Source: an uncultured Anaerolineales bacterium
Lineage (GTDB): Bacteria > Chloroflexota > Anaerolineae > Anaerolineales > UBA11858
Assembly: GCA_964582965.1 (NCBI GenBank)
Contig: CAZOUN010000005.1
Location: 1,376-65,375, forward strand
Reading direction: 5' to 3'
Length of the DNA: 64,000 nucleotides
Shown here: one piece after another, positions 37,033 through 52,159 of the stretch
Numbering within the stretch: the first letter of the stretch is position 1
Layout: every line of letters begins with the position of its first letter
Notes under the pieces: model-generated
Told to the model about the DNA's origin: nothing
Seen by the model: only the letters and a program-made list of their open reading frames with translations
Databases searched by the model: none
Program-made: the position numbers and the translations under genes

Positions 37033-37908
37033 TTATTGATAAGTGGTGCCCCCGTTATCAAAAATCATTTTCCTGCGCCTGTAAGCCCAGCACATGTACG
37101 ATATCGATACAAAATAACTTGCCGGGAGCCGGTGCAGGTTCTTAATCTTGGTGCCTAACACAGTGGTCTTACCGTGGAACCCCATCGGACCGATGTCCAG
37201 CTGGTTAGCCTGGTCTGTGATTTTCTCTTCCATTTCAGCAAGGGCAGGATCCGTATTGGTATCATCCAACTGCCTCTTGAGAACTTCCTTGGAGGCAACA
37301 TAGGATGAACCGCGATCACCACCGATAGCTATACCCAATGTTCCGGGAGCGCAGCCTTTCCCCTGCGCTTTTGCCACCGCATCCAGGCTGACTCTTCGCA
37401 CACCATCCAGATCCCTACCAGCAGCAAGGGAAGAATCTGGAAGTTTATATTGCGTGCTGACATTTTCGCAACCCCCACCCTTTAGGATGAGATCGATCTC
37501 TAGCAGTTCGCCTTCTATTTCCTCAAAGTGGATCGAAGGGTAATATTCATCACCGCTATTATCTCCTGTATTTTTTCCTGTCAGGGTATTGACAGAATTG
37601 GGTCTCAGGTAAGATTTCTTTGTGGCGACGATCACTGCTTCTTGGATCTGCCGGGTTATTTTCCTGGTACTCCAACCTTCTGGATAACTTACATAGAACA
37701 AAGGGGTTCCCGTGTCCTGGCAGATAGGAGTAGAATTTTCCCGAGCCATTTTAACATTTTCCAGGATCGTATCCAGAGCGCCTTGAGCGGCCGAGCCATC
37801 TTCTTCCCGCTCCCGTGATTCGCGGAGGTTTTTTTCTACATCCGGCGGCAGATCTGTAGCTGTTAAACGCACCAATTCCAGGATCTGTTCAGTTATATCT
37901 GGCTGCAT
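37033..37908 (-). CDS. Class I (Fe-S) fumarate hydratase / tartrate dehydratase alpha subunit
   Basis: PICQDTGTP and GGGCEN blocks of the Fe-S hydro-lyase alpha domain. ATG 37908 follows a GGGAGG SD; a TTG at 37929 gives the ORF maximum. Confidence 0.85.
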   Translation of the reverse strand: MQPDITEQILELVRLTATDLPPDVEKNLRESREREEDGSAAQGALDTILENVKMARENSTPICQDTGTPLFYVSYPEGWSTRKITRQIQEAVIVATKKSYLRPNSVNTLTGKNTGDNSGDEYYPSIHFEEIEGELLEIDLILKGGGCENVSTQYKLPDSSLAAGRDLDGVRRVSLDAVAKAQGKGCAPGTLGIAIGGDRGSSYVASKEVLKRQLDDTNTDPALAEMEEKITDQANQLDIGPMGFHGKTTVLGTKIKNLHRLPASYFVSISYMCWAYRRRKMIFDNGGTTYQ

Positions 37909-38076
37909 AATACCTCCCACACCTGACAAGAATACACACTCCTATATATAGATTATGCCATTTTATCAACTAAGTACAGTATGAGAAATAATCCTCTTTG
38001 GATATCATTAGTCATGTCCTGCGGAATAAGGGCTACCCGCTTGAATAATGAAACTATGCTATACTAATTCTGAGTT

Positions 38077-38331
38077 ATGAAAACACAAGAAAATAGGGAA
38101 AAATGGATTGAATCACTGTATAAATTACGGCTCCAGAACCTCACCGCGACCTTCTTGGAAGCTCTGGGTCCAATGAATCTGCTTGGCGCCCAGCTGGTCT
38201 ATCTAAGCCAACCAGTTTTGTCCTCTTTCGTCCCTAAAGAACAATCCCAGGACTTCGCAAAGATTTTAGAAGATCCATCCGAAACGGTGTTATTTATCGA
38301 GGCACTCAGAAATTACGAACCAACAACCTAG
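38077..38331 (+). CDS. Hypothetical small protein (84 aa), first gene of the 38-47 kb operon
   Basis: ORF starts about 12 nt after an extended -10 element (TGcTATACT, 38057-38065) with no SD, so the mRNA may be near-leaderless. One hydrophobic segment (LLGAQLVYLSQPVL). Its stop abuts the next gene. Confidence 0.45.
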   Translation: MKTQENREKWIESLYKLRLQNLTATFLEALGPMNLLGAQLVYLSQPVLSSFVPKEQSQDFAKILEDPSETVLFIEALRNYEPTT

Positions 38332-38346
38332 TTGGAGGAATTATCT

Positions 38347-39129
38347 GTGTCTGCTACTGGCTTCACGGGAATAGTGGTTATTGTACTTTTTGTTGGTTTG
38401 ATGGTCTTTTTTTCGTTCATTAATAAAGACCGGAAAATCCATAATATTCGCCCAATACCCGCCTATGACAAAATCATCCAGGAGATCAATGTTGCCGTCG
38501 AAGATGGTACTCAGCTGCATATCTCCCTGGGCAGAGGGGGTATTACAGGTCCCGAATCAGCTGCCGCACTGGCCGGATTGGGAATCCTAAAACAGATCAT
38601 TGAAAAATCATCGGTTTGCGATCTTCCCCCAGTTGCCTCCACTGGCAGTCCGGTAATCTCTATTCTGGCGCAGGACACGATCAAAGGAAGTTCAAAAGCC
38701 CTCAGCGCATCTGATCACATCAGAAATCCATCAGGTGAGCTGATCGGCGTCACTCCTTTTTCTTATGCTGCTGGAACTTTAAGCACTATCCGGGACGATA
38801 ATGTCTCTGCAAACATCCATACCGGATGGTTTGGAAACGAAATCACCTGGATCACAACTGCCGGGGAACGGCAAAGCAGCCCTACTATCGCCGGAACTTC
38901 CCAGCTTGCCGCTCAAGCAGTCATCTATGCCAGCGCTTCTGACCCCCTGATCGGTGAAGAATTATTCGCTGGCGGAGCTTACCTCGGTGCAGGAAAAATG
39001 CACCAGGCCAGCATATCAGCCCAGGATGTCGTTCGCTGGATCATCGTTTTTATCATCCTGGCCAGCGTTTTTCTGAATATCTTTGGAATTGACACCTTTA
39101 TTGAAAATATCCTGGCAGGTTCAAAGTGA
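38347..39129 (+). CDS. Hypothetical bitopic membrane protein (TM, ~210-aa domain, TM)
   Basis: GTG 38347 lies 8 nt after GGAGG (38334-38338); an in-frame TTG at 38332 is the ORF maximum. N-terminal helix GIVVIVLFVGLMVFFSF and C-terminal helix WIIVFIILASVFLNIFG. Confidence 0.6.
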   Translation: MSATGFTGIVVIVLFVGLMVFFSFINKDRKIHNIRPIPAYDKIIQEINVAVEDGTQLHISLGRGGITGPESAAALAGLGILKQIIEKSSVCDLPPVASTGSPVISILAQDTIKGSSKALSASDHIRNPSGELIGVTPFSYAAGTLSTIRDDNVSANIHTGWFGNEITWITTAGERQSSPTIAGTSQLAAQAVIYASASDPLIGEELFAGGAYLGAGKMHQASISAQDVVRWIIVFIILASVFLNIFGIDTFIENILAGSK

Positions 39130-39770
39130 AGATCGATCTAAAATCTCCTATTTCAACGGCTGTTGCTATCGGAGTCGGCATAATCGTCCTGGCTGGATAT
39201 TTCATTCCATCATTTATTAATATCCGTTTCATCCTTCTGAGAACCGGTTTGGTCCTTTCAGCTGTTGCACTTCTGGTCGGCATTATTAATCTGATCACAG
39301 TCCACCTCAGAAAATTGGGGGCTGACAGCGAAAATTCCGGTTACAGCCTGATCCTTGTCATTGCTCTGCTGACAACTCTGGTTATTGGAATCATTGACAT
39401 GGTTCAGACCTATCTGGTTGGCAAACCCAACTTTCAGATGACCAGTTGGATCTTCACTAATATTCAGCTACCAATTGAAACCAGTTTGCTTGCTGTAACG
39501 GCTGTCAGCCTTACTTATGCGGCCGCCAGCATCCTGCGCAAGCGGATGGACTTATTCTCTATCATCTTCTTTTTTGTAATTTTATTAGTCCTGCTGGGGT
39601 CTTTTTCTATTCCCCCGGCTACACTTCCATTCCTTCATGTGATTCGCGATTGGATCCTGCGAGTCCCGGCCCTGGGAGGAGCCCGCGGTCTACTGCTGGG
39701 TATTGCCCTCGGCACAATTACAACAGGTATCCGGATCCTGATGGGAACAGATCGACCTTACGGTGAATAA
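39126..39770 (+). CDS. Hypothetical polytopic membrane protein (214 aa)
   Basis: GTGA start/stop overlap with the upstream gene. Five to six hydrophobic helices. Confidence 0.6.
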   Translation: MKIDLKSPISTAVAIGVGIIVLAGYFIPSFINIRFILLRTGLVLSAVALLVGIINLITVHLRKLGADSENSGYSLILVIALLTTLVIGIIDMVQTYLVGKPNFQMTSWIFTNIQLPIETSLLAVTAVSLTYAAASILRKRMDLFSIIFFFVILLVLLGSFSIPPATLPFLHVIRDWILRVPALGGARGLLLGIALGTITTGIRILMGTDRPYGE

Positions 39771-39772
39771 TC

Positions 39773-42700
39773 ATGAATGAGATCCTCTGCCCAACCTGCG
39801 GAAAACCCAATACAGATGATCATAATTTTTGTGATCATTGTGGTGCTCCCCTGTTCAGCGTGGATCCACTTCCGCCCGACAGCCCCTCCCTGAGAGATGA
39901 TCTCTTTGATGATAACGAAGATAAAACCCCAGTTCAATCCCTGTATCCACAGGATGAAGGCTCGCGGTTAGACAGTTTGTTATCAGATGAAGATCCCCTT
40001 CAAGATCCGCCCCATCTATCGGATTCCCTGGATGATTCAGCCAGGCTGGACGATCTGATTCCCGCCCCGGAACCTTCAGCTGAATTCCCAGTGGAGGATG
40101 ATATTCAACCAATTGGCGAGTCTGATGCTTCCTCCAGATTGGACGATTTCTTCACTACAGATGATCCGTTTATAAGCTCCGAAGAAGAAAAGGAACCGGA
40201 TCCTCCAGCTTTCGATCCTTTTCTTGAACCTTCTGCACGTGATGAGCTATTGGGAGAAGAAACTCCAGCAGAAAAGAACGGTGGAGCGTGGGAATACCTG
40301 ACAGAGCCATCCACTGAAAACAGCTTAACAGAAAAAAACCTACCGATTGAAAAACCTGCGGACAACCTGGATTTTCTTAGCTCGCTTGCCGATGACAACA
40401 ACCTCGCAGAGGAACGCCTTACCCAAAAGTCCAGCGAGGAGGAGGACATCCTTACTACGCCATCTGCTGAAGAAGCACCTCTTATAAAAGAAGACCCCGT
40501 ACAAGACCCTGTTGATGGATGGGATTTCTTAACCACTCCTGGAGCGGAAGAAGAACCCAAAAGACCAAAGGAATCTGACCGGGATACAGCCGGAGAACTG
40601 GAATTTTTAGCAGCACTGAATCGTGAGGATGGCGCAGCTGGAGCAGAACAACCCACAAAACCAGAACAATCCAACCAGGATACAGCTGGGGAATGGGATT
40701 CCCTGACTTCATCATCTGCTGAAGAATCACCCATTAAAAAAGAAAAACCCGTACAAGACCCTGTTGATGGCTCGAATTTATTCACCACTCCTGGATCGGA
40801 AGAAGAACCCATAATAACAGAACAAACCGACCAGGACTCAACTGGGGAATTGGACTTTTTAGCGGCCTTGGATGGAGAGGAAAATGTTTCCGGGACAGAC
40901 CACCCTGCAGGCGGTCAAGCAGGGGAATTGGATTTCTTAACACCAGATCCAGAAATTGAACCAGCGCCAATAGGTTTTCGCCCTGACCTTTATGATGAAG
41001 ATGAAGATCCTCTCCCGGAATTTGGCACTCCTGGTTTCAGTGAGGATTCCGGTTGGTTAGACATGCTCCAAGACCCGGATTCCAGGGAACCGGCCGTAGA
41101 CGCCCCGCCAGAGCCCACTAAACCTCAAACTGATTGGTTGGATAAGATCAAGAGGTTGAATAAAAGCAGCGATCTGGTAGATGAAGACTCATCCTTCCCG
41201 GATTGGCTTTCTGTGTCAGAAAAACCAGCAGAAGAAATTCCTGAGGAAGTAAAGCCAGTGGAAGATCATGAGCCAGTTTCTGATAATGAAGAGGCAGCTC
41301 CCGCCAGCGATTTGCCCGCCTGGCTCAAAATTGATGGGGATGATGAATCCCTGAACGCTTTCTTGCGAAAAAAAGACCGCACAAACGAGGAATATAAACC
41401 CTCCATTATAAGAGGTATTACTGATAAGCTCCCTCAAGAAGGTAAGGAGGATGAACCAGCCTCTGGGTTAAGCGATTCCCAACAAATCAAGTTCCCATCC
41501 TGGGCAGAAGAAAAAAAGAAAGCTGCTGAGAAAGTCTCTCAAGATCCGGAATTCTTAGCCGGGCAAGAAGAAGGATCTGACCCGATCGTTGACCCATTCC
41601 AGGTTGAGGAAGAAGAATTTTTTGACGATCTCTTCAGCGATGAGCTTCCTGGCTGGCTAACATCTGCATCTTCTGATTCTGCGTTTGAAGATTTTGAAGA
41701 GGAATTATCCCAAGGTGAATTGCCAGGTTGGGTCGAAGCCATGCGCCCCGTCGTTGAATCGAATGATGCCACTGGACTCTCCGAGGATGAAGATTATATA
41801 GAAAATTATGGACCGCTGGCCGGAATCCCCAGTGTGCTGCCAGCTGAAGCTGACGTTGCATTTGATCCTGAAAAAGCCGCCAAGAAACCACTGGATCTAT
41901 TTGCTTCAAAATCCCACCAGGATTATGTCAACGTACTAAAGAAACTCATCACGGATGAGAATAAAACAAAAACCATCCTAAAGCCCGCCCCGGTTGCTAC
42001 CCAAAGGGTTCTGCGCTGGTTGATTGCCCTCATCATGCTGGTAACAACAGCGGGAACGGTCATCTTTGGTGGAGTTATCGAGACAGACCCTCCCACCTCA
42101 GCCCAGATTGTGAACTCGGGGTACGGGGCTTTATATGAACAGATCGAAAGTCTATACGATGGCCAGTCTGTATTGATTGCTTTTGATTACCAGCCTGCCT
42201 CTGCCGGAGAGCTGCACATCGCAGCTGCTGGTGTTGTCGACCACTTGATGAAACAAGGCACTTATCTGTCTTTTATTTCAACTCAGCCCACCGGGCCTGC
42301 TCTGGCAGATCATTTCCTGGCCACAACCCAGGAAAAACATGGATACATTCATACCCAGCAATATATCAACCTGGGATATTTACCCGGTGAATCAGCCGGA
42401 TTATTAAGTTTCGTTATAGCACCGAAGAAGATCATCCCCCTTGCATTTGACGGCAGCAACGCCTGGGGATCTCCCCCTTTATTGAATGTAAACTCAATTA
42501 ATGATTTTGCTATGGTTCTGGTTATCACAGACGATCCAGAAACAGCAAAAATATGGATCGAACAAGTTGGCACGATCCTGGAAGATACTCCTTTGAATAT
42601 GGTAGTCAGCGCTCAGGCTGAGCCCTTGATCCAGCCTTATTTTCGCTCATCACCTCAACTTCTCAAAGGATATGTTTCTGGGATTATTGACAGCGTGAAT

Positions 42701-42865
42701 TATGAACAACTGCTAGACCGGCCAAATCTGGCCACTGCAGCTTGGCTTCCATTCAATTTGGGTATCATTATCACGGTTGGAACAATATTTATCGGCGGGT
42801 TGGCAAATGGCGTTTTATCTCTGTTTTCCCGCCATAGATCCAGGACTGCAGGAGATGTTAAGTGA
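39773..42865 (+). CDS. Zn-ribbon protein with a ~700-aa acidic repeat-rich linker and a C-terminal TM-domain-TM module
   Basis: N-terminus CPTCGKPNTDDHNFCDHCGAPL (a 4-Cys ribbon). A long D/E/P/S-rich region carries recurring aromatic motifs. TM at LRWLIALIMLVTTAGTVIFGG, then a ~270-aa domain, then TM at LGIIITVGTIFIGGLANGVLSLF. Confidence 0.8.
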   Translation: MNEILCPTCGKPNTDDHNFCDHCGAPLFSVDPLPPDSPSLRDDLFDDNEDKTPVQSLYPQDEGSRLDSLLSDEDPLQDPPHLSDSLDDSARLDDLIPAPEPSAEFPVEDDIQPIGESDASSRLDDFFTTDDPFISSEEEKEPDPPAFDPFLEPSARDELLGEETPAEKNGGAWEYLTEPSTENSLTEKNLPIEKPADNLDFLSSLADDNNLAEERLTQKSSEEEDILTTPSAEEAPLIKEDPVQDPVDGWDFLTTPGAEEEPKRPKESDRDTAGELEFLAALNREDGAAGAEQPTKPEQSNQDTAGEWDSLTSSSAEESPIKKEKPVQDPVDGSNLFTTPGSEEEPIITEQTDQDSTGELDFLAALDGEENVSGTDHPAGGQAGELDFLTPDPEIEPAPIGFRPDLYDEDEDPLPEFGTPGFSEDSGWLDMLQDPDSREPAVDAPPEPTKPQTDWLDKIKRLNKSSDLVDEDSSFPDWLSVSEKPAEEIPEEVKPVEDHEPVSDNEEAAPASDLPAWLKIDGDDESLNAFLRKKDRTNEEYKPSIIRGITDKLPQEGKEDEPASGLSDSQQIKFPSWAEEKKKAAEKVSQDPEFLAGQEEGSDPIVDPFQVEEEEFFDDLFSDELPGWLTSASSDSAFEDFEEELSQGELPGWVEAMRPVVESNDATGLSEDEDYIENYGPLAGIPSVLPAEADVAFDPEKAAKKPLDLFASKSHQDYVNVLKKLITDENKTKTILKPAPVATQRVLRWLIALIMLVTTAGTVIFGGVIETDPPTSAQIVNSGYGALYEQIESLYDGQSVLIAFDYQPASAGELHIAAAGVVDHLMKQGTYLSFISTQPTGPALADHFLATTQEKHGYIHTQQYINLGYLPGESAGLLSFVIAPKKIIPLAFDGSNAWGSPPLLNVNSINDFAMVLVITDDPETAKIWIEQVGTILEDTPLNMVVSAQAEPLIQPYFRSSPQLLKGYVSGIIDSVNYEQLLDRPNLATAAWLPFNLGIIITVGTIFIGGLANGVLSLFSRHRSRTAGDVK
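40464..40950 (+). repeat. In-frame tandem duplication (2 x 252 bp, i.e. 2 x 84 aa) inside the Zn-ribbon protein gene
   Basis: ctgctgaagaa...cccgtacaagaccctgttgatgg...accactcctgga.cggaagaagaaccc occurs at 40464 and again at 40716. The protein copies are SAEEAPLIKEDPVQDPVDGWDFLTTPGAEEEP... and SAEESPIKKEKPVQDPVDGSNLFTTPGSEEEP... Confidence 0.8.
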
Positions 42866-43566
42866 CCATAGCTAGTATGATGGACTTCATTGGGTTATCC
42901 CTGGGATTTTTACTGACGATCCTGATCTTTAGCTATTTATTAGGAGATAATCCGTTTTTCCGATTGGCGATCCATATTTTTATTGGTGTCTCTGCTGGAT
43001 ATGTTGCCATTGTCACAGTCAATAATGTACTGATCCCGCGTTTGATCATCCCCCTCATCCAGGGATCACGAGGTGAGCGGTTATTATCAATCTTGCTTTT
43101 CATACCCAGTGTGTTCTTGTTTTTCAAAGTAACGCCTCTCCGCAAGTTTGGGAATTGGGCAGTTGCCATTCTGGTTGGAATCGGAGCCGCGGCAGCCATC
43201 GGCGGTGCGATCACCGGCACACTCTTCCCCCAGATTCTGGGTACAATCAACAGTGTGGATCCATCGGCCTATACCATCACCACCAGCCGCTGGGACCAAG
43301 CAATTAATGGGATCATCGTTGTTCTGGGAACAGTGACAACCCTGATATATTTCCATTTCGGAACTCAAGACACGCCTGGACAATCCGATAAAAGGCTGCC
43401 AATCATCGAATATACCAGTCTGGTTGGGAAGGTCTTTTTGGCAATCACTTTTGGTGCCTTGTATGCCGGTGTATTTTTGACCTCCCTGGCCGCCCTGGTA
43501 GAGAGATTGTCTTCATTCTGGGCTTTCCTGAATACTATTGGTTTTCAATTAATCTCTTCATTTTAG
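42862..43566 (+). CDS. Hypothetical polytopic membrane protein (234 aa)
   Basis: GTGA start/stop overlap with the upstream gene. About six hydrophobic helices. Confidence 0.65.
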   Translation: MTIASMMDFIGLSLGFLLTILIFSYLLGDNPFFRLAIHIFIGVSAGYVAIVTVNNVLIPRLIIPLIQGSRGERLLSILLFIPSVFLFFKVTPLRKFGNWAVAILVGIGAAAAIGGAITGTLFPQILGTINSVDPSAYTITTSRWDQAINGIIVVLGTVTTLIYFHFGTQDTPGQSDKRLPIIEYTSLVGKVFLAITFGALYAGVFLTSLAALVERLSSFWAFLNTIGFQLISSF

Positions 43567-43571
43567 GTATC

Positions 43572-45329
43572 ATGGATAAAACAACAATTGCATCAAAATC
43601 AGTTATAGCAGTTGATATCGGAAGTACCATCACCCGATCATTGTTTTTTGATGTGGTGAGTGGTAAATACCGCTTTGTGGCCGTGGGGAGTGCACCAACA
43701 ACAGCAGGGGTACCTCACTTTGATGTAACAGAGGGGATTTGGCGGTCATTGGAAGAACTCCAATTTATAACCGGCCGGAAATTATTAAGCGGAAAAGATG
43801 GCGTGATCATCCCCAGCACCCCTGATAACCAGGGAGTTGATATCATGGTTGCGACCATGTCTGTCGGCAAACCAATTTCTGTTGTCACTGTAGGGCTGCT
43901 GGATACCGTCTCACTGCAAAACGCCCGGCATCTAGCCCAAACAACATATGCGGATATCATCGCCGAGATATCACTGAACGATCGCCGGACGTCATCTGAC
44001 AGGATAAACCTGCTAACCAGAAAACGACCCGAATTGATCATTATTACCGGGGGCACAAATAACGGTGCCTCAGAGTCTCTTCTCAGCATCCTTGAGAGCA
44101 TTGGTCTGTCCAGTTATATGCTGGATGAAAGTCAGCGCCCCCATATCCTATTCACGGGTAACGAACAGCTCCAAGACGAGGTCAAATCCGGGCTGGCCAA
44201 GATCAGCAAATTAAGAGTTGCTGCCAATATCCAGCCTGTACTCGGGAAAGAAAATATCCACCCCGCCCAGAAAGAGATTAACGAAGTATATAAAGAAATA
44301 CGAAAAAAACAGACCGGTGGGCTCCGGGAAGTCATCTCTTGGACTGAGGGAACATTCACATCAACAGCATCTGCTTTTGGTCGGGTAATCCGATTCCTGA
44401 GTGAAAAATATGAGCCAGAAAAAGGCGTTCTGGGAGTTGATATTGGATCCGATGCAACTATTATGGCGGCAGCATTTAACGGGGAAGAAACGCTTCGAGT
44501 ATTTCCCGGTTTAGGCGTTGGATCTGGTTCTGGTGGTGTGATCGAAAAAAATTCCCTGGATTTGATTAAACGCTGGATGCCAATTGAGCTGTCCGACCAG
44601 GAGATCCAGGATTATATATATAATAAATCGATATATCCTCGTTCACTTCCTCTAAATACAGAACACCTTGAGGTCGAGCTGGCTGTAGCCAAACAGGCTA
44701 TAAGATATGCGGCAGAACAAACTATCCCTGGACTGCCAAAACAGCTGGGAGCCGGGGGTACTTTACTGCCTTATATGGAGCCGATCATTGGGTCTGGACG
44801 GATCTTGACCCTGGCACCTAAACGCTATCACCCGCTGTCTGTTCTACTTGACGGCCTGCAACCAACCGGTGTAACAACCCTGGCCCTGGACCAAAACGGC
44901 TTGTTACCAGGATTAGGGGCTGTGGCCGAGGCCAACCCCTTGTTAACCGTTCAGGTGATAGAATCGAGCACTTTTCTGAATCTGGGCACGATTATTGCAC
45001 CTTTAGGAATTGCCAGACCTGGAACCACCATTCTCAGGATTCGGGTCAACCGGGAAGATGGAAGGTCATTTACTCGAGAAATAAAATATGGGTCCCTCAC
45101 AATTCTTCCAGTGGATCTTGGTGAAAAAGTCTCACTGCACCTTCGCCCTCTCAATCGTTTTGATGTTGGCATGGGAGGTCCTGGAAAATCTGGCAAGGTG
45201 AATGCCGTTGGAGGCGTCTTTGGTATTGTGATCGATGCCCGGGGACGTCCACTTCAGTTTTCGCTTGACCAGGAGAAAAACAGGAAACGGAATGAGGTCT
45301 GGAGAAAAACATTCAATAAGTATGAATAG
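43572..45329 (+). CDS. GlmL/MutL-like two-lobed ASKHA (actin/Hsp70-fold) ATPase-like protein
   Basis: Phosphate-1-like VIAVDIGSTITRS, ELIIITGGTNNGA, a second-lobe GVLGVDIGSDATIM and PIIGSGRIL. The duplicated D-I-G-S-x-x-T pattern matches what I recall for the glutamate-mutase-associated MutL/GlmL family. Confidence 0.65.
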   Translation: MDKTTIASKSVIAVDIGSTITRSLFFDVVSGKYRFVAVGSAPTTAGVPHFDVTEGIWRSLEELQFITGRKLLSGKDGVIIPSTPDNQGVDIMVATMSVGKPISVVTVGLLDTVSLQNARHLAQTTYADIIAEISLNDRRTSSDRINLLTRKRPELIIITGGTNNGASESLLSILESIGLSSYMLDESQRPHILFTGNEQLQDEVKSGLAKISKLRVAANIQPVLGKENIHPAQKEINEVYKEIRKKQTGGLREVISWTEGTFTSTASAFGRVIRFLSEKYEPEKGVLGVDIGSDATIMAAAFNGEETLRVFPGLGVGSGSGGVIEKNSLDLIKRWMPIELSDQEIQDYIYNKSIYPRSLPLNTEHLEVELAVAKQAIRYAAEQTIPGLPKQLGAGGTLLPYMEPIIGSGRILTLAPKRYHPLSVLLDGLQPTGVTTLALDQNGLLPGLGAVAEANPLLTVQVIESSTFLNLGTIIAPLGIARPGTTILRIRVNREDGRSFTREIKYGSLTILPVDLGEKVSLHLRPLNRFDVGMGGPGKSGKVNAVGGVFGIVIDARGRPLQFSLDQEKNRKRNEVWRKTFNKYE

Positions 45330-45356
45330 GGTACAGGTATAAAACCTGACAGAAAA

Positions 45357-46415
45357 ATGATCAGTAAAGTAAAACATATTCATTCACTCACAAGCATAAA
45401 ACGGGAACGGGTCTTACCCGTCGCCGGTCATGTCCTTGTTCGCCGGATGCAAAAAGTGTCCCCCACAGATGTGATCGTGGTTGCTCCTCTCGCCCCCCAA
45501 TTCATTCTGATGAATATTTCCCAGGGCCTAAATGTTAATGCAGCTCGGGCAGATGAGCTCCTTCAACGTCAGGCTGGTGAAGATCTGGTACAGGGAGATG
45601 TCATTGCAGGACCAGTGGGGATGTTCCAGCGCGTTGTTAGGGCACCCCAGGCTGGAGTCGTGAGGATAGCGGGTGAAGGAAAAGTATTATACGAGATCAC
45701 TTCTCCCGACTTCGAATTACAGGCGGGCATGGAAGGTACAATCACCAATATCATCCCGGAACGTGGCGCTATCATAGAGACAAAAGGAGCTCTCATCCAA
45801 GGTGTTTGGGGAAACGGGAAGATAACCTACGGCGTAGTACAGCCTATCAGCAATGATATGCTCCAGGAACTGGTTGTAGAACAGCTCAATATTGGATTTC
45901 GGGGAGCAATCATCACTGCTGGATTCTGCAGAAAACCAGAAGTGCTGGAAGCTGCTGGTATCGTGCCAATCAAGGGATTGATCCTGGGAAGCATGTCCTC
46001 AGTACTAATACCACTGGCTAAAAAGATGGATTACCCCATCATGGTCATTGATGGTTTCCGTGAAACACCTATGAACAAAGCCGCGGAAGCAATTTTGATC
46101 AATAACAAAGATAAAAATATCGCCTTGAACGCCCAGGAACTTGACACCAATCAGGGGAACTACCCTGAGGGTATTATTTCACAATCATCGACTTCTGAAC
46201 CAGAGTTACCTTCAGAAGCTGAAACCCTCAAAGTGGGTAAAAAGGTTATCATTATAAATGGACCGCAAGCCCCACAAATCGGAGAAATTGATAGAATAAT
46301 ATCTGGAAAACAGGTTCTGGCCAATGGAGTTGAAACCAAGCTTGCAGAAATCAAGCTTGCCAATGATAAAAGTACAGTTTTACCGATGACGAATTTGGAA
46401 ATTCTTAAGGATTGA
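45357..46415 (+). CDS. Hypothetical soluble protein (352 aa) with barrel-like N-terminal region and KOW-like C-terminus
   Basis: No TM segments. The N-terminal segment GDVIAGPVGMFQRVVRAPQAGVVRI resembles a barrel-sandwich hybrid. The C-terminus KVGKKVIIINGPQAPQIGEIDRI resembles a KOW motif. Confidence 0.55.
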   Translation: MISKVKHIHSLTSIKRERVLPVAGHVLVRRMQKVSPTDVIVVAPLAPQFILMNISQGLNVNAARADELLQRQAGEDLVQGDVIAGPVGMFQRVVRAPQAGVVRIAGEGKVLYEITSPDFELQAGMEGTITNIIPERGAIIETKGALIQGVWGNGKITYGVVQPISNDMLQELVVEQLNIGFRGAIITAGFCRKPEVLEAAGIVPIKGLILGSMSSVLIPLAKKMDYPIMVIDGFRETPMNKAAEAILINNKDKNIALNAQELDTNQGNYPEGIISQSSTSEPELPSEAETLKVGKKVIIINGPQAPQIGEIDRIISGKQVLANGVETKLAEIKLANDKSTVLPMTNLEILKD

Positions 46416-46467
46416 ATACAAACCAATTTACTAAAGATCTGACAGGGTAAATTGAGGAGAGAGACTT

Positions 46468-47064
46468 ATGGGAATGAATGATTTTGAAGATATGGATTTC
46501 GAAGAAATTGGGAGTGAAGAAACTATCTCAACCAGCAGAGGTTCAAATCGAACCTTCCTGATCGTTGCAGGTATTCTTGGAGGTATTCTCCTGATTGCTT
46601 TGCTGGCGATTGCTGCCTATGCTATCCTGTACCTGCCTGGCCGCGATACTGGCCAACAGACCCAGGTTGCTGAGATCAATGCGACCAATACAGCAGTAGC
46701 AGAGGAAGCCCAGCTGACGGCGATAGCCAAACAGGTGACAATGACCCCCACCTTTACGGCAACACTACCGCCTACGAATACTCCTACCATGACCCCCAGC
46801 AGCACATCAACTCCCGTTCTGGCGCCCACCAACACACCGGTGCCGATCGATGGTACACCTGATCCGGCCGCCACAGAAACGGTTGCCGCTCTGCTGACTC
46901 AACAAGCAGGAGGTGGAGGTGGTGCTACGCCTATTCCGACAGCAACCGCACTCCCGGATACGGGTTTCGCGGACGATTTCGGTGTTCCGGGGCTGGTCCT
47001 GGTCGCAGGGATATTAATGGTAATCATTATCCTCAGCCGCCGCTTAAGAACATCAACCAACTGA
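46468..47064 (+). CDS. Pro/Thr-rich cell-wall protein with an N-terminal signal anchor and a C-terminal LPXTG sorting signal
   Basis: The C-terminus ALPDTGFADDFGVPGLVLVAGILMVIIILSRRLRTSTN is an LPXTG motif followed by a hydrophobic helix and a basic tail. The mid-region is PT-rich (TLPPTNTPTMTPSSTSTPVLAPTNTPVP). A GAGGAGAGAG SD precedes the start. Confidence 0.7.
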   Translation: MGMNDFEDMDFEEIGSEETISTSRGSNRTFLIVAGILGGILLIALLAIAAYAILYLPGRDTGQQTQVAEINATNTAVAEEAQLTAIAKQVTMTPTFTATLPPTNTPTMTPSSTSTPVLAPTNTPVPIDGTPDPAATETVAALLTQQAGGGGGATPIPTATALPDTGFADDFGVPGLVLVAGILMVIIILSRRLRTSTN

Positions 47065-47099
47065 CATAGATGGTTTGATACCCTGCCATCCTGATTAAA

Positions 47100-47147
47100 T
47101 AAAAACAACCACAGTGCTTTCTCTTCTCATTGTGGTTGTTTGATTTA
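47100..47147. terminator. Bidirectional terminator between the 38-47 kb operon and the convergent mutase gene
   Basis: aaacaaccaca (47103-47113) pairs with tgtggttgttt (47131-47141), with a 17-nt loop and A/T-rich flanks. Confidence 0.65.
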
Positions 47148-47165: not shown

Positions 47166-48626
47166 TCAGGTGATACTTTCGGCGACTTCCTCTCCATATC
47201 CCAGTAAAGACTGAACCATTTCCTTTGTTCTCCCTTCAGCGTAAACTCGCAAGACTGGTTCTGTGCCTGACGGCCTGATCAGAAGCCAGGAATCATCATC
47301 CATAATATATTTCACGCCATCGATGGTCAGAAGTTCTGTAACGTTCACTCCTCCGATCTCTACCGGTTTGTTATCCAGCAAATATTGAACCATCTCTTTT
47401 TTCTGAATCGGGTATTTCAATCGTTGGTCCTTTCTCTCGTAGAAAGCCGGTCCCACTTCTTCCAGCAGCTCATTCACCAGCGTGTGAAGGGATTTCCCAT
47501 AAACAGAAACCATTTCAATTAATAGCAATCCCATCAATACCCCATCTCCTTCCGGGATATTACCCTGGATCGAGATACCGCCCGATTCCTCGCCACCAAT
47601 TAACACGTTCTCAGATATCATGTAATCCGCAATATGATTAAAACCTACCGGGGTTTCATAAACGGGAAGGCCGTATTTGGCTGCCAGGCGGTCAATCATG
47701 CGGGTTGTTGAAACAGTCCGCACCACTGGTCCGGTTAGGCCCCGATGATCCACCAGGTATTTTAGAGAAAGGGCCATGATTTTATGGGGGTCAACAAAAT
47801 TTCCCCTTTCGTCCATGGCTCCAATTCTGTCCGCATCACCGTCTAATGCCAATCCTAAATTACCCATTCCCGTGCTCATCGCACCAGCCAAGGCCCCGAG
47901 CTGTGCGCCAATTGGTTCGGGATGAGCACCGCCAAATCCAGGATTCATTTCTCCACGGATCTCGCTTACTTCGCAGCCAGTTCCCGAGAGGATGCTCTTG
48001 ATCATACCTCTGCCTGAACCGTGCATTGAATCAACTACTACTCTGGGAGGATCAACAGCAATAGCATCGAAGTCGATTAGCGTTCTCAAATGCTGGTAAT
48101 AATCCGGGACGGGATTGAAACTGATGATCTGCCCCGTATCAACAGCCAGATCCCATTCCATTAAGTTCGGACCCCGTCCTCTTTCCTGGTTATCATTGAG
48201 ATAGACTTCCACTTTACGAGACTGTTCTGGAGACGCGGAACATCCATTAGCCGCTTTTAATTTCACACCGCTATACCGGGGAGCATTATGAGAAGCAGTG
48301 ATCACAATGCCGGCAATGGCATTAAGGTTTTTCACTGCATAAGAAATTGAAGGAGTGGAAGAATCTGCCTGGGCAATATATACGGTATACCCATTAGCTG
48401 CCATCACCCGGGCAACATCTCTGGCGTATCGGTCAGAAAGAAAACGAGTATCAAAGCCAACTATTATTTTATTCGGGTCTGGTTTGATATTTTCCGCGTC
48501 CCCATTATGCCAATGTCCAGAACGAATTGCATCGGCGATAGCTTGGGTTACCATGCGAAGATTATGAAAAGTAAATGTGTCGGAGATAACTGCTCGCCAG
48601 CCATCTGTGCCAAAATTTATAGGCAT
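47166..48626 (-). CDS. Phosphoglucomutase/phosphomannomutase-family (alpha-D-phosphohexomutase) enzyme
   Basis: N-terminal FGTDGWRA, active-site serine loop TASHNAPRYSGVK, metal loop DGDADR, sugar loop GGEESGG. ATG 48626 follows a GGAG SD; a TTG at 48746 is the ORF maximum. Confidence 0.9.
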   Translation of the reverse strand: MPINFGTDGWRAVISDTFTFHNLRMVTQAIADAIRSGHWHNGDAENIKPDPNKIIVGFDTRFLSDRYARDVARVMAANGYTVYIAQADSSTPSISYAVKNLNAIAGIVITASHNAPRYSGVKLKAANGCSASPEQSRKVEVYLNDNQERGRGPNLMEWDLAVDTGQIISFNPVPDYYQHLRTLIDFDAIAVDPPRVVVDSMHGSGRGMIKSILSGTGCEVSEIRGEMNPGFGGAHPEPIGAQLGALAGAMSTGMGNLGLALDGDADRIGAMDERGNFVDPHKIMALSLKYLVDHRGLTGPVVRTVSTTRMIDRLAAKYGLPVYETPVGFNHIADYMISENVLIGGEESGGISIQGNIPEGDGVLMGLLLIEMVSVYGKSLHTLVNELLEEVGPAFYERKDQRLKYPIQKKEMVQYLLDNKPVEIGGVNVTELLTIDGVKYIMDDDSWLLIRPSGTEPVLRVYAEGRTKEMVQSLLGYGEEVAESIT

Positions 48627-48795
48627 GCTTCTTGCTCCTAAATCTACTAGATAAATGTACCTTATTCTATCACCGTTGCTTCTGACAGGCAGGTCCTGGA
48701 CTTTTATAAAATCCTGATCCAGGACTTGGTTCCGACTCCTTGACAATAGAGGTCAGTGAAGCCTTTGTTGTGTTAAAATTAACTTGATAAAAATT

Positions 48796-50433
48796 ATGGA
48801 TTCAAAAACGATCTTTTCCTTCCTGCATGACCATTTTCTCTTTAAATTCCTGAGCGATGATGAGCTGGGGCAATTATTACCACTCTTTAATCCAATATCT
48901 CTGGATGAAGGGGAAGTCCTCTATCGAGCCGGTTTCCCTGGCAGGAATTTTTTCCTGGTCGTATCTGGCAAAGTGCTGGTAGAAGATGAGAACCAAAACG
49001 GGATCATTATCAATTCCAGGGGGCATTTTGGGGATAAGGAATTACACCGGGAAGTTTTGCGGAAAGAGACTGCCACAGCCCTGGAAGATACCACCTTACT
49101 AGCGGTAAATAAACGGGGGTTTATCGCCATCCTCTCGGCATATCCATCCACAAGAACCAAGTTATCTGCTTTGAAATTAAGCGCAAACATTTTGCAGACA
49201 AATGAATTTCCCTGGATCGGTCCCGAAGAGGTCATCCGCTTCATAGATCGCAAACATATAAATATCCTCTACGGACAAATGCTGCTGCCAGTCCTATTCT
49301 TGATCTTGACGGGGATTGGTGCAATCTTGCTCCATTTGAATCTGGGTGTATTCATGGTCATCACTATCCTAATCTCCATAGTCTGGGGAGTTTGGCTCTG
49401 GATGGATTGGCGGAATGATTTTTACCTGGTCACCAGCGACAGAGCAGCCTGGGTAGAAAAAGTGATCTGGCTTCATGACCAGCGCCGTGAGGTACCGCTC
49501 CAATCCATCTTGTCTGTAAATATTTCCACAAATCAGCTGCAACGATTGTTTGGATATGGAGATGTGATCATTCGCACCTATACCGGAAACATCCCCATGC
49601 GCAATACCGCCCATCCGGAAGTGCTGCTGGATCTAATTTCTGAAGCACAGGAAATAGCCAAAGCCCGCGCCCAGCAAACCGATAAGGATAATATAAACCA
49701 GGCCATCCGCAGCCGATTGGGACTATCCGGTGAAACCGGACCAATGGACCAGGAAGAAGAATTCACTGATCTAAATATGGAAGGTGGGCCTCAACTGACA
49801 GAAACGATCACTCCCCTACAGGAATTTCTCAACCTCTTTAGGGCTCGATATGAGCTGAATGGGGTCATCACTTACCGGAAACATATATTCATTCTGTTCA
49901 AGAACTCCTGGTGGCTGTGGCTGATGTTTGTGCTGCTGCTTGTATCCTTCTTTGCACGCCTGGTCCAGCTGATCTCTATCCCTTCTATTTCTCTCCTGGG
50001 TGTCCTCCTAACGATTAACGTTCTTGCCCTGGCTTATGCCTTTGCAGATTGGGCCAATGACCGTTTTCAAATCACGGCTAAACAGGTGATTGATCTGGAT
50101 CGAAAACCCTTTGGTCGAGAAACCAAGCGTTCTGCTCTGTTAGAAAACATCCTCAGCCTGGATTACCGAAGGGAGAATATCATCCAAAGGATATTCGATT
50201 TCGGTACAGTAGCCATCAACGTCGGTGATATCCAGTTGGACTTTGAACACGTCGCTCAGCCTATCTCTGTGCAAAATGAGGTCTTCGAGCGTTATAATGC
50301 CGTGATAAAAGGAAACGAGCTCGCCGAGTCCAGGCGCCGCCGAGATGATATGGTAGAATTTCTAGCGGCTTATCATGAAGAAAACAACGATGTTGATGAT
50401 CCGTTTGATGGTGACGAAACAATACAGCTGTAA
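48796..50433 (+). CDS. Cyclic-nucleotide-binding domain protein fused to membrane-embedded bacterial PH (YdbT/bPH_2-like) modules
   Basis: N-terminal cNMP-binding beta-barrel (FLVVSGKVLVEDE ... GHFGDKEL). Then two TM-pair plus PH-like repeats (NDFYLVTSDRAAWVEK, NDRFQITAKQVIDLDRK). Start is ATG 48796 or TTG 48784. Confidence 0.7.
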   Translation: MDSKTIFSFLHDHFLFKFLSDDELGQLLPLFNPISLDEGEVLYRAGFPGRNFFLVVSGKVLVEDENQNGIIINSRGHFGDKELHREVLRKETATALEDTTLLAVNKRGFIAILSAYPSTRTKLSALKLSANILQTNEFPWIGPEEVIRFIDRKHINILYGQMLLPVLFLILTGIGAILLHLNLGVFMVITILISIVWGVWLWMDWRNDFYLVTSDRAAWVEKVIWLHDQRREVPLQSILSVNISTNQLQRLFGYGDVIIRTYTGNIPMRNTAHPEVLLDLISEAQEIAKARAQQTDKDNINQAIRSRLGLSGETGPMDQEEEFTDLNMEGGPQLTETITPLQEFLNLFRARYELNGVITYRKHIFILFKNSWWLWLMFVLLLVSFFARLVQLISIPSISLLGVLLTINVLALAYAFADWANDRFQITAKQVIDLDRKPFGRETKRSALLENILSLDYRRENIIQRIFDFGTVAINVGDIQLDFEHVAQPISVQNEVFERYNAVIKGNELAESRRRRDDMVEFLAAYHEENNDVDDPFDGDETIQL

Positions 50434-50453: not shown

Positions 50454-50954
50454 ATGCCTGCTAGAGAAATTATCCTTGTACCCCACCCAACCCTGAGGAA
50501 AAAAGCTGCCAAAGTCTCTGATTTTGGACCCGAGCTTCAGGAATTAGTTGATGATATGATTATCACCCTGCGTGAAGCATCAGGAGCAGGTTTAGCAGCT
50601 CCGCAGGTAAATGTATCTCAACAAGTCATCCTGGTCGAATACGGCAGCGATGAAGATGAGGATATTCCACCTGTTCTATACGTGACAGTAAATCCAAAAA
50701 TTTCCCGATTTTCCCAGGAAATAGTAACTGGCGCAGAAGGATGCTTATCTATTCCGCGGTTTATGGGTGAAGTGGACCGGGCTCAGGATATTCTAGTTGA
50801 AGGCCAGGATCGGTACGGCAAACCACTCAAGATGAAATTCCAAGGCTGGCTCGCCCGGATATTTCAACACGAAATTGATCATATTAACGGCATTTTATAT
50901 ACGGATCGAACTACCCGCGTCTGGGAAACAGACGAGGATTTTAATCCCGTCTAA
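50454..50954 (+). CDS. def: Peptide deformylase
   Basis: GAGLAAPQV, EGCLSIP and QHEIDHINGILY motifs. Confidence 0.92.
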   Translation: MPAREIILVPHPTLRKKAAKVSDFGPELQELVDDMIITLREASGAGLAAPQVNVSQQVILVEYGSDEDEDIPPVLYVTVNPKISRFSQEIVTGAEGCLSIPRFMGEVDRAQDILVEGQDRYGKPLKMKFQGWLARIFQHEIDHINGILYTDRTTRVWETDEDFNPV

Positions 50955-50959
50955 GCTAG

Positions 50960-52159
50960 ATGTTCCTCACTCACCTATCCCTCACAGATTTTCGAATATT
51001 TTCCCGCTTCGACCAGGAGGTTCCCCTTAACTCGGTCATTTTGGTCGGTGATAACGCTCAGGGCAAAACCAGTATTCTGGAAGCAGTCTATTATCTATCT
51101 ACTCTGGATTCTTTCCAGGCATCCAATTCACTCGATCTTATAAATTTTTCAGCCTTGCAGAACAACCTGGCTGTTTGCAGGATCGTGGCCGACTTCAAAA
51201 AGAAGGATACAGACCACCACCTTGAGATCCGCATCATCAAAGATACCTCCTCCAATGGGAATCAGACAGTACGTAAAGAAGTCTTATTGGATGGGTCACA
51301 GCAGAAGATCAACACGGTTATCGGCACATTCAATGCGGTTCTATTCCTTCCCCACATGCTCCAGATCGTCACCGGTTCACCGAAATTGCGTCGTCATTAC
51401 CTGAATCTGACACTGGCACAAGTCGATCCTGTATATACAGAATCACTCTCTCAATATAATAAAGCACTGGCTCAGCGCAATGCACTCCTTAAACAGCTTA
51501 ACGAGCGCTCCGGTGATGTTGACCAACTTTCCTACTGGGATGAAAAAATCACCCAGGCAGGCTCCTATATCATCCATGCCCGGATCCAGGCCATTCGGGA
51601 TCTAGGTTATCTCGCTGCCTCAATTCATCAGGAATTGACCAGGGGAGAAGAAATCTTGCGGCTCAATTATCAGCCATCATTTGATCCGGTAGCTACCCCT
51701 CCCGGACAAATCGAACTCCCGCTTGAGAATGCGCTCGATCGATCCGGAGTCGAACTTAAAGATATCCGTGATGGGTATCGTGAAAAACTATTATCCACCC
51801 GAACCGAAGATATCTACCGGGGAGTAACATCCCATGGTCCGCACCGTGATGAAATGCGCTACCTCAGCAATGGTATTGATTTGGGAAACTTCGGATCCAG
51901 GGGCCAGCTGCGGACAGCGATGCTTGCCAGCAAACTGGCAGAAGTGAATTGGCTTAACGAAAAGAACGGAGATTGGCCTGTGCTTCTGCTGGATGAAGTC
52001 CTGGCTGAATTGGATGATACCCGCCGCCAGGATCTGCTGGATCGTTTGGCAAAAACCGAACAATCATTATTAACAACAACAGATCTGAACTTGTTTTCGG
52101 ACAAGTTCAAACAATCAGCAACTCATTGGCAGATCAAGAACGGGGGATTGGCAGATTGA
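50960..52159 (+). CDS. recF: DNA replication and repair protein RecF
   Basis: Walker A GDNAQGKTSILEA, the SGGQ-like GSRGQLRT signature and Walker B LLLDEVLAELD. Confidence 0.92.
   Translation: MFLTHLSLTDFRIFSRFDQEVPLNSVILVGDNAQGKTSILEAVYYLSTLDSFQASNSLDLINFSALQNNLAVCRIVADFKKKDTDHHLEIRIIKDTSSNGNQTVRKEVLLDGSQQKINTVIGTFNAVLFLPHMLQIVTGSPKLRRHYLNLTLAQVDPVYTESLSQYNKALAQRNALLKQLNERSGDVDQLSYWDEKITQAGSYIIHARIQAIRDLGYLAASIHQELTRGEEILRLNYQPSFDPVATPPGQIELPLENALDRSGVELKDIRDGYREKLLSTRTEDIYRGVTSHGPHRDEMRYLSNGIDLGNFGSRGQLRTAMLASKLAEVNWLNEKNGDWPVLLLDEVLAELDDTRRQDLLDRLAKTEQSLLTTTDLNLFSDKFKQSATHWQIKNGGLAD

Follow-up and report, generated by a model that had tools for sequence, protein, structure and literature searches.

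The window analysed here, 64 kb (64,000 nucleotides) of contig CAZOUN010000005.1 from an uncultured Anaerolineales bacterium, contains eight consecutive open reading frames (ORFs) on the plus strand at positions 38077-47064. These genes, which we name g1 to g8, form one conserved operon-like unit. The first, g1 (38077-38331), encodes a small subunit of 84 amino acids (aa). It is followed by g2 (38347-39129; 260 aa when read from GTG), in which a DUF6754 domain lies between two transmembrane (TM) helices, and by g3 (39126-39770; 214 aa), a polytopic membrane protein. In the protein encoded by g4 (39773-42865; 1030 aa), a Zn ribbon and an acidic disordered tail precede a TM helix, an alpha/beta ectodomain and a second TM helix, and g5 (42862-43566; 234 aa) is again a polytopic membrane protein. 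The last three genes encode a GlmL/MutL-family NTPase of the ASKHA fold with a beta-rich C-terminal domain (g6, 43572-45329; 585 aa), a soluble protein with barrel-sandwich-hybrid-like and KOW/SH3-like parts (g7, 45357-46415; 352 aa) and an LPDTG protein (g8, 46468-47064; 198 aa).

An initial annotation, made from the sequence alone, had described eight same-strand ORFs packed with two GTGA start/stop overlaps and gaps of 2-52 nt. All eight were present in the ORF list and the packing was confirmed by measurement: the intergenic spacings from g1 to g8 are, in order, 15, -4, 2, -4, 5, 27 and 52 nt, with the two GTGA overlaps at 39126-39129 (g2/g3) and 42862-42865 (g4/g5). The mechanical ORF list begins g2 at TTG 38332; GTG 38347 was instead preferred as its start because a GGAGG sequence is located at 38335-38339. 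An extended -10-like element, TGcTATACT (38057-38065, plus strand), was read from the sequence 11 nt 5' of the g1 ATG (38077), and an mRNA initiated from it would be nearly leaderless. The element is thus present in the sequence as first described, but a generic sigma-70 scan gave it no statistical backing: the scan returned 17 sites versus 13.4 in shuffled sequences, which is no excess, and did not list TGcTATACT because it has no -35 hexamer. At the other end, a hairpin with a 14-bp stem (47103-47141) lies between g8 and the convergent PGM/PMM gene. Its predicted energy is -27.8 kcal/mol (z = -4.95), equalled by none of 200 shuffles, which agrees with the suggestion that the two transcription units share a terminator and makes the hairpin a candidate bidirectional one. 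The GC content of the cluster is like that of the remainder of the window. No riboswitch or leader was found 5' of the cluster, in the window or in six loci.

Distribution of the cluster and its two modules

Database searches returned g6 homologues annotated as Anaerolineales or Chloroflexota. A scan of one genome per species yielded 75 loci, assigned to Anaerolineales, Anaerolineae, Caldilineaceae, Thermanaerothrix and unclassified Chloroflexota, with one labelled Nitrosomonadaceae. With genes called by iterated hidden Markov models (HMMs) on six-frame ORFs, g1 to g8 were found in the same order and on the same strand in 38 of the 43 Anaerolineae loci with enough flanking sequence, down to about 31% g6 identity. 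Further Chloroflexota-type clusters (L079, L081 and L083) repeat the eight-gene order. Three contigs labelled Nitrosomonadaceae or Chloroflexia (L005, L001 and L014) were 74-93% identical to Anaerolineales loci across g6 and had the same gene order, and these labels are probably binning or labelling errors.

Genes outside the eight were not conserved in divergent Anaerolineae loci. The most frequent neighbours in about 24 loci were PGM/PMM (7), a cNMP-binding protein (5), SH3_3 (5) and PIG-L (4). In many Anaerolineae loci the cluster is adjoined, as in the window, by the PGM/PMM gene (47166-48746, minus strand) and by the gene for a membrane protein with cNMP-binding and bPH domains (48784-50433, plus strand). 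This adjacency persists at about 38% g6 identity in some loci and is absent in Caldilineaceae-type loci and in other phyla.

Outside Chloroflexota, the dominant architecture consists of seven families in an order rearranged relative to Anaerolineae, g1-g6-g7-g2-g3-g4C-g5, where g4C denotes the C-terminal part of g4. The seven families occur together in no fewer than seven phyla other than Chloroflexota. In a metagenome scan with a non-Chloroflexota-type seed, more than 543 stretches matched and 80 loci were kept, among which this order predominates. For example, three marine metagenome loci (L076-L078) read g1, g6::g7 (a fusion), g2, g3, g4C and g5, with HMM E-values of 3e-12 to 1e-151. Their g2 has an extra FN3-like N-terminal domain, their g4C is a stand-alone protein of 293 aa that has no Zn ribbon or acidic tail, and a neighbouring gene carries a Por_Secre_tail of the type IX secretion system type. 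In the 19 loci flanked by 6.5 kb or more on each side, the tetrad g2-g3-g4C-g5 was complete in 15, partial in none and not found nearby in four, and five of the 19 had at least two tetrads beside a single g6-g7 pair. The core is therefore shown to consist of two separable, co-occurring modules: a soluble one of g6 and g7, usually with g1, and an all-or-none membrane one of g2, g3, g4C and g5. The question of whether linkage is conserved or homologues are scattered is answered in favour of linkage by the 38 of 43 Anaerolineae loci, the 15 full tetrads among the 19 flanked loci of other phyla and the g6::g7 fusions.

Hosts were named by exact-sequence look-up of g6 in NCBI proteins. An identical g6 was found in Gimesia maris, G. 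fumaroli, G. aquarii and G. panareensis of the Planctomycetota (L088), in Nitrospira and Nitrospirota (L128 and L149), in Zixibacteria (L121, L123 and L132), in Latescibacterota (L150), in Eisenbacteria (L122) and, as g6 alone, in Poribacteria (L159). The Nitrospira protein belongs to a single 90%-identity cluster of 883 members. The tetrad is duplicated or triplicated in tandem beside one g6-g7 pair in L121, L123, L132, L122, L118 and L139, and in the three Zixibacteria loci the tetrad copies are transcribed divergently from the pair.

Some lineages carry other arrangements. A Firmicute-like contig (L080, 1100-9430), with SpoIIT, SpoIID and MurA as neighbours and no g2-g5, encodes g7 and then a 1304-aa protein in which g6 is preceded by a signal peptide, TSP3 repeats, an ectodomain of about 620 aa and one TM helix; a 1020-aa M1-peptidase-like membrane protein comes after this fusion. 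In L126 (698-9703) and L127 (2051-11032), g6, an unknown gene of 266-279 aa and g7 lie directly upstream of tolQ-tolR-tolA-tolB-pal on the same strand. MotA/ExbB-type genes flank the cluster in five metagenome loci. Recurrent neighbours elsewhere, always a minority, were Memo, Tol-Pal and scattered phospholipid-synthesis genes. As to the latter, a gene for a lipid kinase of the YegS/DAGK type lies near the cluster in two lineages that are unrelated (L076, 7905-9971; L079, 3163-4080), a CdsA gene lies between the lipid kinase gene and g1 in L076, and single PlsX, PlsY and CDP-alcohol phosphatidyltransferase genes occur in other flanks, which amounts to a weak association with phospholipid synthesis.

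A defence system or a mobile island was considered and rejected. The flanks of the cluster in the window are housekeeping genes (IleRS, TyrRS, kynureninase-like, MFS transporters, class I fumarase, PGM/PMM, def, recF and rsmG) and its GC content is normal. PADLOC gave no match for any of the eight proteins, and tblastn with g6 gave none in 72,556 plasmids or 50,697 phages.

The GlmL/MutL-type protein g6 and its partner g7

Residues 11-465 of g6 match positions 1-448 of the 450 positions of the Pfam MutL model (PF13941) with an E-value of 1e-58 (199.4 bits, gathering score 27). This full-length match supports the GlmL/MutL-like ASKHA identity proposed initially. Against the curated NCBIfam models, g6 scored below the cut-offs: 85.6 versus 475 bits for GlmL (NF040745), 60.1 versus 204 for TIGR01319 and 62.5 versus 600 for Or-4. 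The protein also carries a conserved beta-rich C-terminal domain of about 120 aa that includes G547, G551, D555-x-RGRP (RGRP at 557-560) and W577. Across 137 representatives, 28-43% identical to the window protein, these C-terminal residues and D15, G17, T21, G160, G161, G165, G196, N197, N219, P222, G409, L426, D427, G433 and D440 were at least 90% conserved; D290, G292 and P431 were at least 70% conserved. The phosphate-1, phosphate-2 and adenosine motifs of ASKHA proteins are intact, and the nucleotide-binding residues expected of an ATPase-like protein are thus conserved in the alignment.

An exhaustive g6 profile search against representatives of 50%-identity clusters retrieved 2613 of them at E <= 1e-3, 782 below 1e-30. 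Among the best 150 relatives, nearly all matched to the end of the profile including the C-terminal domain, the few exceptions being truncated sequences. The C-terminal domain was also considered as a homologue of g7, and this was rejected. No significant match to g6 was found in the PDB (best E-value 0.24), nor any Pfam or NCBIfam match to MreB_Mbl, FtsA, actin or ParM at E <= 1.

Nearly all g6 proteins with retrieved database names are called "glutamate mutase L" or "methylaspartate mutase". GlmL/MutL has been described as a chaperone that reactivates glutamate mutase (PMC4682846). The simplest reading of the names would be that g6 is this reactivase of the coenzyme-B12 glutamate mutase, with unrelated neighbours kept by synteny. 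Besides the names, the Pfam MutL match and a class I fumarase-like neighbour point in this direction. The scores, however, fall far short of the curated cut-offs for GlmL and Or-4. In addition, g6 carries a further domain at its C-terminus and is obligately partnered by g7, and unrelated phyla have the same membrane genes after it, though the gene order differs. Genes for glmS, glmE or mal were detected neither in the cluster nor in the scanned window ORFs (about 22 ORFs of at least 150 aa were unscanned), nor among the families that neighbour 24 related loci and some 60 others. The fumarase adjacency is moreover limited to close relatives of the window. With sub-threshold scores, no mutase genes and a different architecture, a B12-mutase reactivase was rejected as extremely unlikely, and the database names are misleading.

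The fumarase neighbour is a class I alpha-like gene (37033-37929, minus strand) that lies divergently beside g1-g8. It echoes the methylaspartate-pathway clusters, which are also adjoined by a fumarase-like gene (PMC4682846). The adjacency in the window is probably coincidental, because neither a glutamate mutase nor a methylaspartase gene was detected and the pairing does not extend beyond close relatives.

Compared with the GlmL/MutL family (PF13941, NF040745 and TIGR01319), g6 is alike in its alignment to the MutL model and in its ASKHA motifs, and the role described for that family is the ATP-dependent remodelling of a partner (PMC4682846). It differs in that its C-terminal domain lies beyond the GlmL models of about 450 aa, in never occurring beside mutase genes, and in being always paired, sometimes fused, with g7 and usually accompanied by four membrane proteins.

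Natural g6::g7 fusions were found in a cluster of 12 members (P0373; 995 aa), whose contigs are the marine loci L076-L078 described above, and in three further loci (L084, L086 and L087). Hydropathy predicts no TM helices in g7, as in g1 and g6, and a borderline hydrophobic stretch at residues 200-221 of g7 sits inside an alpha/beta domain of its AlphaFold2 (AF2) model. The model comprises an N-terminal beta domain like a barrel-sandwich hybrid, the small alpha/beta domain, a disordered linker (residues 232-288) and a C-terminal barrel. Profile and Foldseek searches with g7 point to the KOW domains of NusG/Spt5 and to biotinyl/lipoyl-type barrels; Foldseek returned only KOW, Tudor or SH3-like barrels and Thermotoga maritima NusG, and PDB searches yielded nothing beyond fragments of KOW and biotinyl-carrier type and a spurious lysozyme repeat. 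Residues 293-318 give a weak KOW match (E 1.7e-3, below the Pfam cut-off), and this match and the modelled barrel bear out the earlier description of a soluble protein with a KOW-like C-terminus. The protein has one Cys.

The KOW/NusG-like domain raises the question of outside-in signalling, in which the g4 ectodomain would sense a cue and g6-g7 would be the cytoplasmic output, either as a nucleotide switch or through a KOW domain that contacts the transcription/translation machinery. The Zn ribbon and long tail of g4, which resemble anti-sigma-like architectures, and the single-TM fusion in L080 would fit such a role. Nevertheless, no core protein has a DNA-binding, sigma, kinase or cyclase domain, the KOW match falls below its cut-off as noted above, and a sensor would not call for as many as four membrane proteins and about 16 TM helices. 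Signalling is therefore regarded as very improbable.

The membrane proteins and the Chloroflexota-type additions

The small protein g1 is weakly hydrophobic and has conserved LE..P...Q......P and LE motifs. It was seen in 48 Anaerolineae loci and heads the cluster in other phyla. The hydrophobic segment first ascribed to it did not hold up, as no stretch reaches the TM-like hydropathy threshold.

By contrast, the proposed layout of g2, a domain between two TM helices, was upheld by hydropathy, which predicts two TM helices, and by a match to DUF6754 (PF20539) with an E-value of 4e-25 (88.8 bits, gathering score 27). DUF6754 is also the precomputed annotation of the g2 homologues of L076, L079, L081 and L083. 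Residues conserved across phyla include R40, E57, G59, LIGEE (206-210), AYL and a QD just before the second TM helix. The domain is probably cytoplasmic, because a positive patch, KDRK, directly follows the first TM helix. In diderms, g2 has an additional FN3-like domain ahead of this helix. A Q[DR]xxRW motif directly before an outward-going TM helix is common to g2 and g4. Homology of DUF6754 to the g4 ectodomain was considered and rejected, as only this juxtamembrane motif of about 20 residues is in common.

The polytopic nature assigned to g3 and g5 agrees with hydropathy, which predicts about six TM helices in each. The C-terminal motif G.R..L.G..LG....R...G..R.Y is conserved in g3, and D29-N30, Q124 and R215 are invariant in g5. 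Profile searches assigned neither protein to a Pfam or PDB family. The similarity of g3 to ABC2_membrane is sub-threshold (E 0.014; 15.4 bits, cut-off 26.9), and one of 23 orthologues reaches 9e-5. A duplicated pair, as in RnfA/RnfE or ABC permease halves, was rejected for g3 and g5 (hhalign probability 0.1%).

In g4, hydropathy places TM helices at residues 746-771 and 989-1018. The core module, g4C (42008-42826, plus strand), is composed of the first TM helix (42008-42085), a Rossmann-like alpha/beta ectodomain (42086-42736) and the second TM helix (42737-42826). The AF2 model of the last 303 residues is of good quality by its scores (pLDDT 89.5, pTM 0.84); in it a Rossmann-like alpha/beta sandwich is preceded by a TM helix and followed by a long one. 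Foldseek comparison with the PDB returned generic Rossmann folds only (TM-score <= 0.34). The layout initially described for g4, with a Zn ribbon, an acidic linker, two TM helices and an ectodomain, was reproduced except that the ectodomain measures about 220 aa rather than about 270. Outside Chloroflexota only the C-terminal region of about 300 aa is conserved, and in other phyla g4C occurs as a separate gene of 287-293 aa. Since the KDRK patch of g2 and the Q[DR]xxRW motif would place DUF6754 inside, the g4 alpha/beta domain would be the only sizeable external part of the system. Profiles of g2, g3, g4C and g5 matched no solved structure in PDB sequence and profile searches.

These membrane proteins could alternatively belong to a transporter or group translocator, in which the pathway is built from g3 and g5, substrate is bound by the g4 ectodomain as a tethered domain, g2 serves in coupling and g6-g7 is an energising or phosphorylating module shared by several specificity tetrads, much as in ECF transporters or TonB-ExbBD. 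The ASKHA superfamily includes sugar and acid kinases. Each unit has two proteins of about six TM helices and a membrane-anchored alpha/beta ectodomain, two or three tetrads may accompany one g6-g7 pair, and the faint ABC-2 permease similarity of g3 described above is in keeping with such a function. However, Pfam, NCBIfam and PDB profiles indicate no transporter family, g3 and g5 share no homology, the cluster is linked to neither substrate-related genes nor riboswitches, and in L080 g6 is paired with a single-TM ectodomain and no polytopic partner. To our knowledge, no ASKHA-energised transporter is known. More specifically, Pfam detects no ABC_tran domain in the cluster, as an ABC transporter would have, and no Rnf-Nqr match on g3 or g5; g7 homologues bear faint RnfC_N/BSH marks and a low-probability Foldseek hit (prob 0.21). 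A transporter is accordingly rather unlikely.

The remainder of g4 differs in character from its core. The Zn ribbon (CPTC...CDHC; residues 4-27; 39782-39853, plus strand) matches Pfam Zn_Ribbon_1 (E 3.8e-7) and is the only HMM-recognisable part of g4. Most Anaerolineae orthologues have one or two Zn ribbons. In L083, g4 has no Pfam Zn-ribbon match and no Cys pairs in the part of the N-terminus that was read, and keeps acidic DWF/DWL repeats. The acidic disordered tail (39878-41962, plus strand; 27% D+E) contains repeated segments, including a 180-nt segment present at both 40450-40629 and 40702-40881. A tandem repeat finder returned nothing on this linker, the repeats being dispersed and not head-to-tail. 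The size of g4 varies from 408 to 2661 aa between species owing to the tail.

A short linear motif with the consensus E-E-[LIM]-P-D-W-L-x-[ED]-L occurs in the g4 tail in 0 to 61 copies per protein, with 586 instances of P.W[LVIMF] in total among the orthologues. The strict LPDWL motif has a density of 2.4 per 1000 aa in g4 versus 0.0014 in all other ORFs of the loci, an enrichment of more than 1000-fold. The g4 of the window has four P-x-W-[LV] copies (41198-41734, plus strand): FPDWL at 41198, LPAWL at 41315, LPGWL at 41648 and ELPGWVEAMRPV at 41723. The last of these, ELPGWVEAMRPV, adjoins the TM helix and is conserved. Caldilineaceae-type g4 proteins reach 1600-2661 aa with 37-61 P-x-W-[LVIM] copies (L053, 1069-9051; also L054, L055, L051, L061 and L049).

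The last protein, g8, consists of an acidic and aromatic N-terminal tail, a TM helix, a Pro/Thr-rich spacer, LPDTG (46951-46965; residues 162-166), a hydrophobic stretch and RRLR. Hydropathy predicts two TM helices, the first of them after an N-terminus of about 28 acidic residues. The N-tails are acidic and aromatic across orthologues, and [LVI]PxTG with the hydrophobic stretch and RRLR is kept in 60 of 62. The LPXTG sequence, hydrophobic segment and basic tail are those of an LPDTG-anchored wall protein, as had been proposed. No Pfam or NCBIfam LPXTG-anchor HMM matched g8, and no sortase was among the most common flank families. Sortase substrates share these C-terminal features with g8, but g8 begins with a long acidic tail and a TM helix instead of a typical signal peptide, and its mature part is a Pro/Thr-rich spacer only. 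It was not detected in loci of other phyla. By their distribution in these sequences, the Zn ribbon, the acidic LPDWL tail and g8 are Chloroflexota-type additions and not core parts.

The ASKHA fold of g6 also invites comparison with actin-like systems. In a cytoskeletal or positioning system, g6 would polymerise at the membrane like MreB, FtsA, PilM or MamK and organise envelope growth, division or filament architecture, with g4 as a RodZ/ZipA-like linker and LPDWL acting like the C-terminal peptide of FtsZ. The layout of g4, with a cytoplasmic domain, linker, TM helix and ectodomain, resembles that of RodZ, and E-[LI]-P-D-W-L presumably resembles the D-[IV]-P-x-F-L of the FtsZ tail. The putative wall anchor of g8, the position of g6-x-g7 directly upstream of tolQRAB-pal in L126 and L127 and the MotA/ExbB-type flanks in five loci also speak for such a role. 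Yet g6 matches none of the MreB, FtsA or actin families, and clusters that are not of the Chloroflexota type lack both the acidic tail and g8, which hence cannot belong to a core mechanism. The hosts, which include filamentous Anaerolineae, budding Gimesia and Nitrospira, have no evident shared morphology. Furthermore, g6 falls in the GlmL/hydantoinase branch, of which the described member is a chaperone (PMC4682846). Among the roles initially left open for this cluster, the cytoskeletal one is the least supported, because the closest relatives of g6 are reactivase-type chaperones and not filament formers, and we consider it improbable.

A possible mode of action and the surrounding genes

It is very probable that g1-g8 encode one physical system. 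The explanation that we prefer for its function, at about even odds, is a trans-membrane machine of modular build, whose four-protein membrane unit would be acted on by a remodelling ATPase of the GlmL type. FtsEX-like mechanotransmission as such is put forward with more doubt than confidence, slightly ahead of a transporter. In this machine g2, g3, g4C and g5 would assemble into one membrane complex with g6-g7 docked on its cytoplasmic side, where the DUF6754 domain of g2 is the likeliest contact. As is the case for related reactivases and chaperones, g6 may remodel its partner by nucleotide binding and hydrolysis rather than polymerise. The conformational change might then be relayed through the membrane to the external alpha/beta domain of g4, following the logic of FtsEX or MacB, and ATP turnover would in this way be coupled to the envelope, as was suggested at the outset. 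Mechanotransmission is favoured over a pore because L080 fuses g6 to an ectodomain through a single TM helix. One g6-g7 pair could serve several paralogous tetrads. In Anaerolineae, the Zn ribbon and LPDWL tail of g4 may act as a multivalent array that docks into a basic or hydrophobic pocket, be it in g6, g7, g2 or some other partner, and g8 may tie the assembly to the wall via a sortase-type anchor.

Several points weigh against this mechanotransmission machine. Physical interaction is suggested by gene fusion and synteny alone, and the topology of g2 by the positive-inside rule alone. The AF2 model of g7 is moderate (pLDDT 67, pTM 0.36), and the g4 ectodomain has neither a recognisable active or binding site nor a specific structural relative. 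Four of the 19 well-flanked loci have no nearby tetrad: L112, L117 and L152 have g6-g7 and L159 has g6 alone. Finally, two proteins of about six TM helices and multiplied tetrads fit a transporter equally well.

The system resembles several known machines without sharing their components. FtsEX and MacB, in which a cytoplasmic ATPase and a membrane subunit with a large outer domain control an external effector, are alike in logic only: an NTPase in the cytoplasm is combined with membrane subunits and a single conserved domain outside; in addition, one lineage (L080) has its ATPase fused via a TM helix to an ectodomain beside a peptidase-like protein. In contrast to them, the cluster lacks an ABC ATPase as well as the permease domains of FtsX and MacB, its NTPase has the ASKHA fold, and its four membrane proteins are distinct. 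In MreB-MreC-MreD-RodZ, FtsA-FtsZ/FtsN and PilM-PilN-PilO, a cytoplasmic ASKHA protein is likewise encoded with bitopic and polytopic partners. The g4 linker is RodZ-like and its short peptide motifs are likely docking sites, but no HMM relation to MreB, FtsA, PilM, MreC, MreD, RodZ, PilN or PilO was found. One g6-g7 pair beside two or three tetrads, as in Zixibacteria, Eisenbacteria and others, recalls ECF transporters with several S components and TonB-ExbBD, to no component of which there is homology. The system therefore belongs to none of these four groups of comparators, GlmL/MutL systems, FtsEX/MacB, ASKHA envelope machines and shared energisers.

No HMM match to ABC, Rnf/Nqr, Tol, Mre, Fts or Pil systems was obtained for g1-g8, and g1, g3, g5 and g8 match nothing in Pfam or NCBIfam. 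Searches in Pfam, NCBIfam, PADLOC and the PDB and with Foldseek placed none of the eight genes in a characterised pathway or in any known family of transporters or of secretion, division or defence proteins, in accordance with the initial annotation, which had recognised no known pathway signature. A literature search found no paper on DUF6754/PF20539, PF13941 or TIGR01319 in this sense or on GlmL with Planctomycetes, and nothing relevant on actin-like proteins in Anaerolineae or on the divisome or FtsA in Chloroflexota. The combination of families is not described in the papers and libraries searched, and for five of the seven core families no relative has been described.

Taken further, the cluster may represent an undescribed, phylum-spanning class of membrane machine, in which an ASKHA ATPase with a barrel-sandwich/KOW adaptor powers or gates a four-protein unit in place of ABC or AAA+ ATPases or the proton-motive force. 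One pair would serve several units, and in Anaerolineae the machine would be covalently tied to the wall and equipped with a multivalent LPDWL docking array. We regard this as a real possibility, with the balance leaning slightly against it. The seven families form one genetic unit in Chloroflexota, Planctomycetota, Nitrospirota, Zixibacteria, Latescibacterota, Eisenbacteria and marine uncultured bacteria, and the annotation of five of them is limited to a single DUF number. A conserved, self-contained multi-subunit membrane system of such spread that lacks a description is rare. If the ASKHA protein does energise the system, this would be a new energy-coupling principle for envelope machines, and a large part of Pfam MutL and DUF6754 would acquire a function. 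The system is present in environmentally important nitrifiers and also in cultured bacteria, so that it is directly testable; these include Thermanaerothrix solaris as well as Gimesia maris with related species, to which genetic tools made for planctomycetes might be adapted.

The rest of the window contains several features apart from the cluster. A gene group at 50454-52873 comprises def, rsmG (gidB) and a gene for a recF-like ATPase of the SMC_N type. Although recF and rsmG are often near a replication origin, the cumulative GC skew across the window has no turning point. On the minus strand (14545-16077 and 17762-19975), a single 510-aa protein joins an ABC-2-type permease region to a SpoIIM domain, and upstream of it lies an FtsK/SpoIIIE translocase gene. 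A T-box leader (RF00230, 94.2 bits; 27475-27745, plus strand) is located directly 5' of the IleRS gene (27778-31218), which is an ordinary arrangement. About 8 kb downstream of the cluster, three consecutive M23 peptidase paralogues of about 500 aa (55060-56565, 56572-58143 and 58156-59655, plus strand), at least two of them with LysM, encode putative wall hydrolases or activators.

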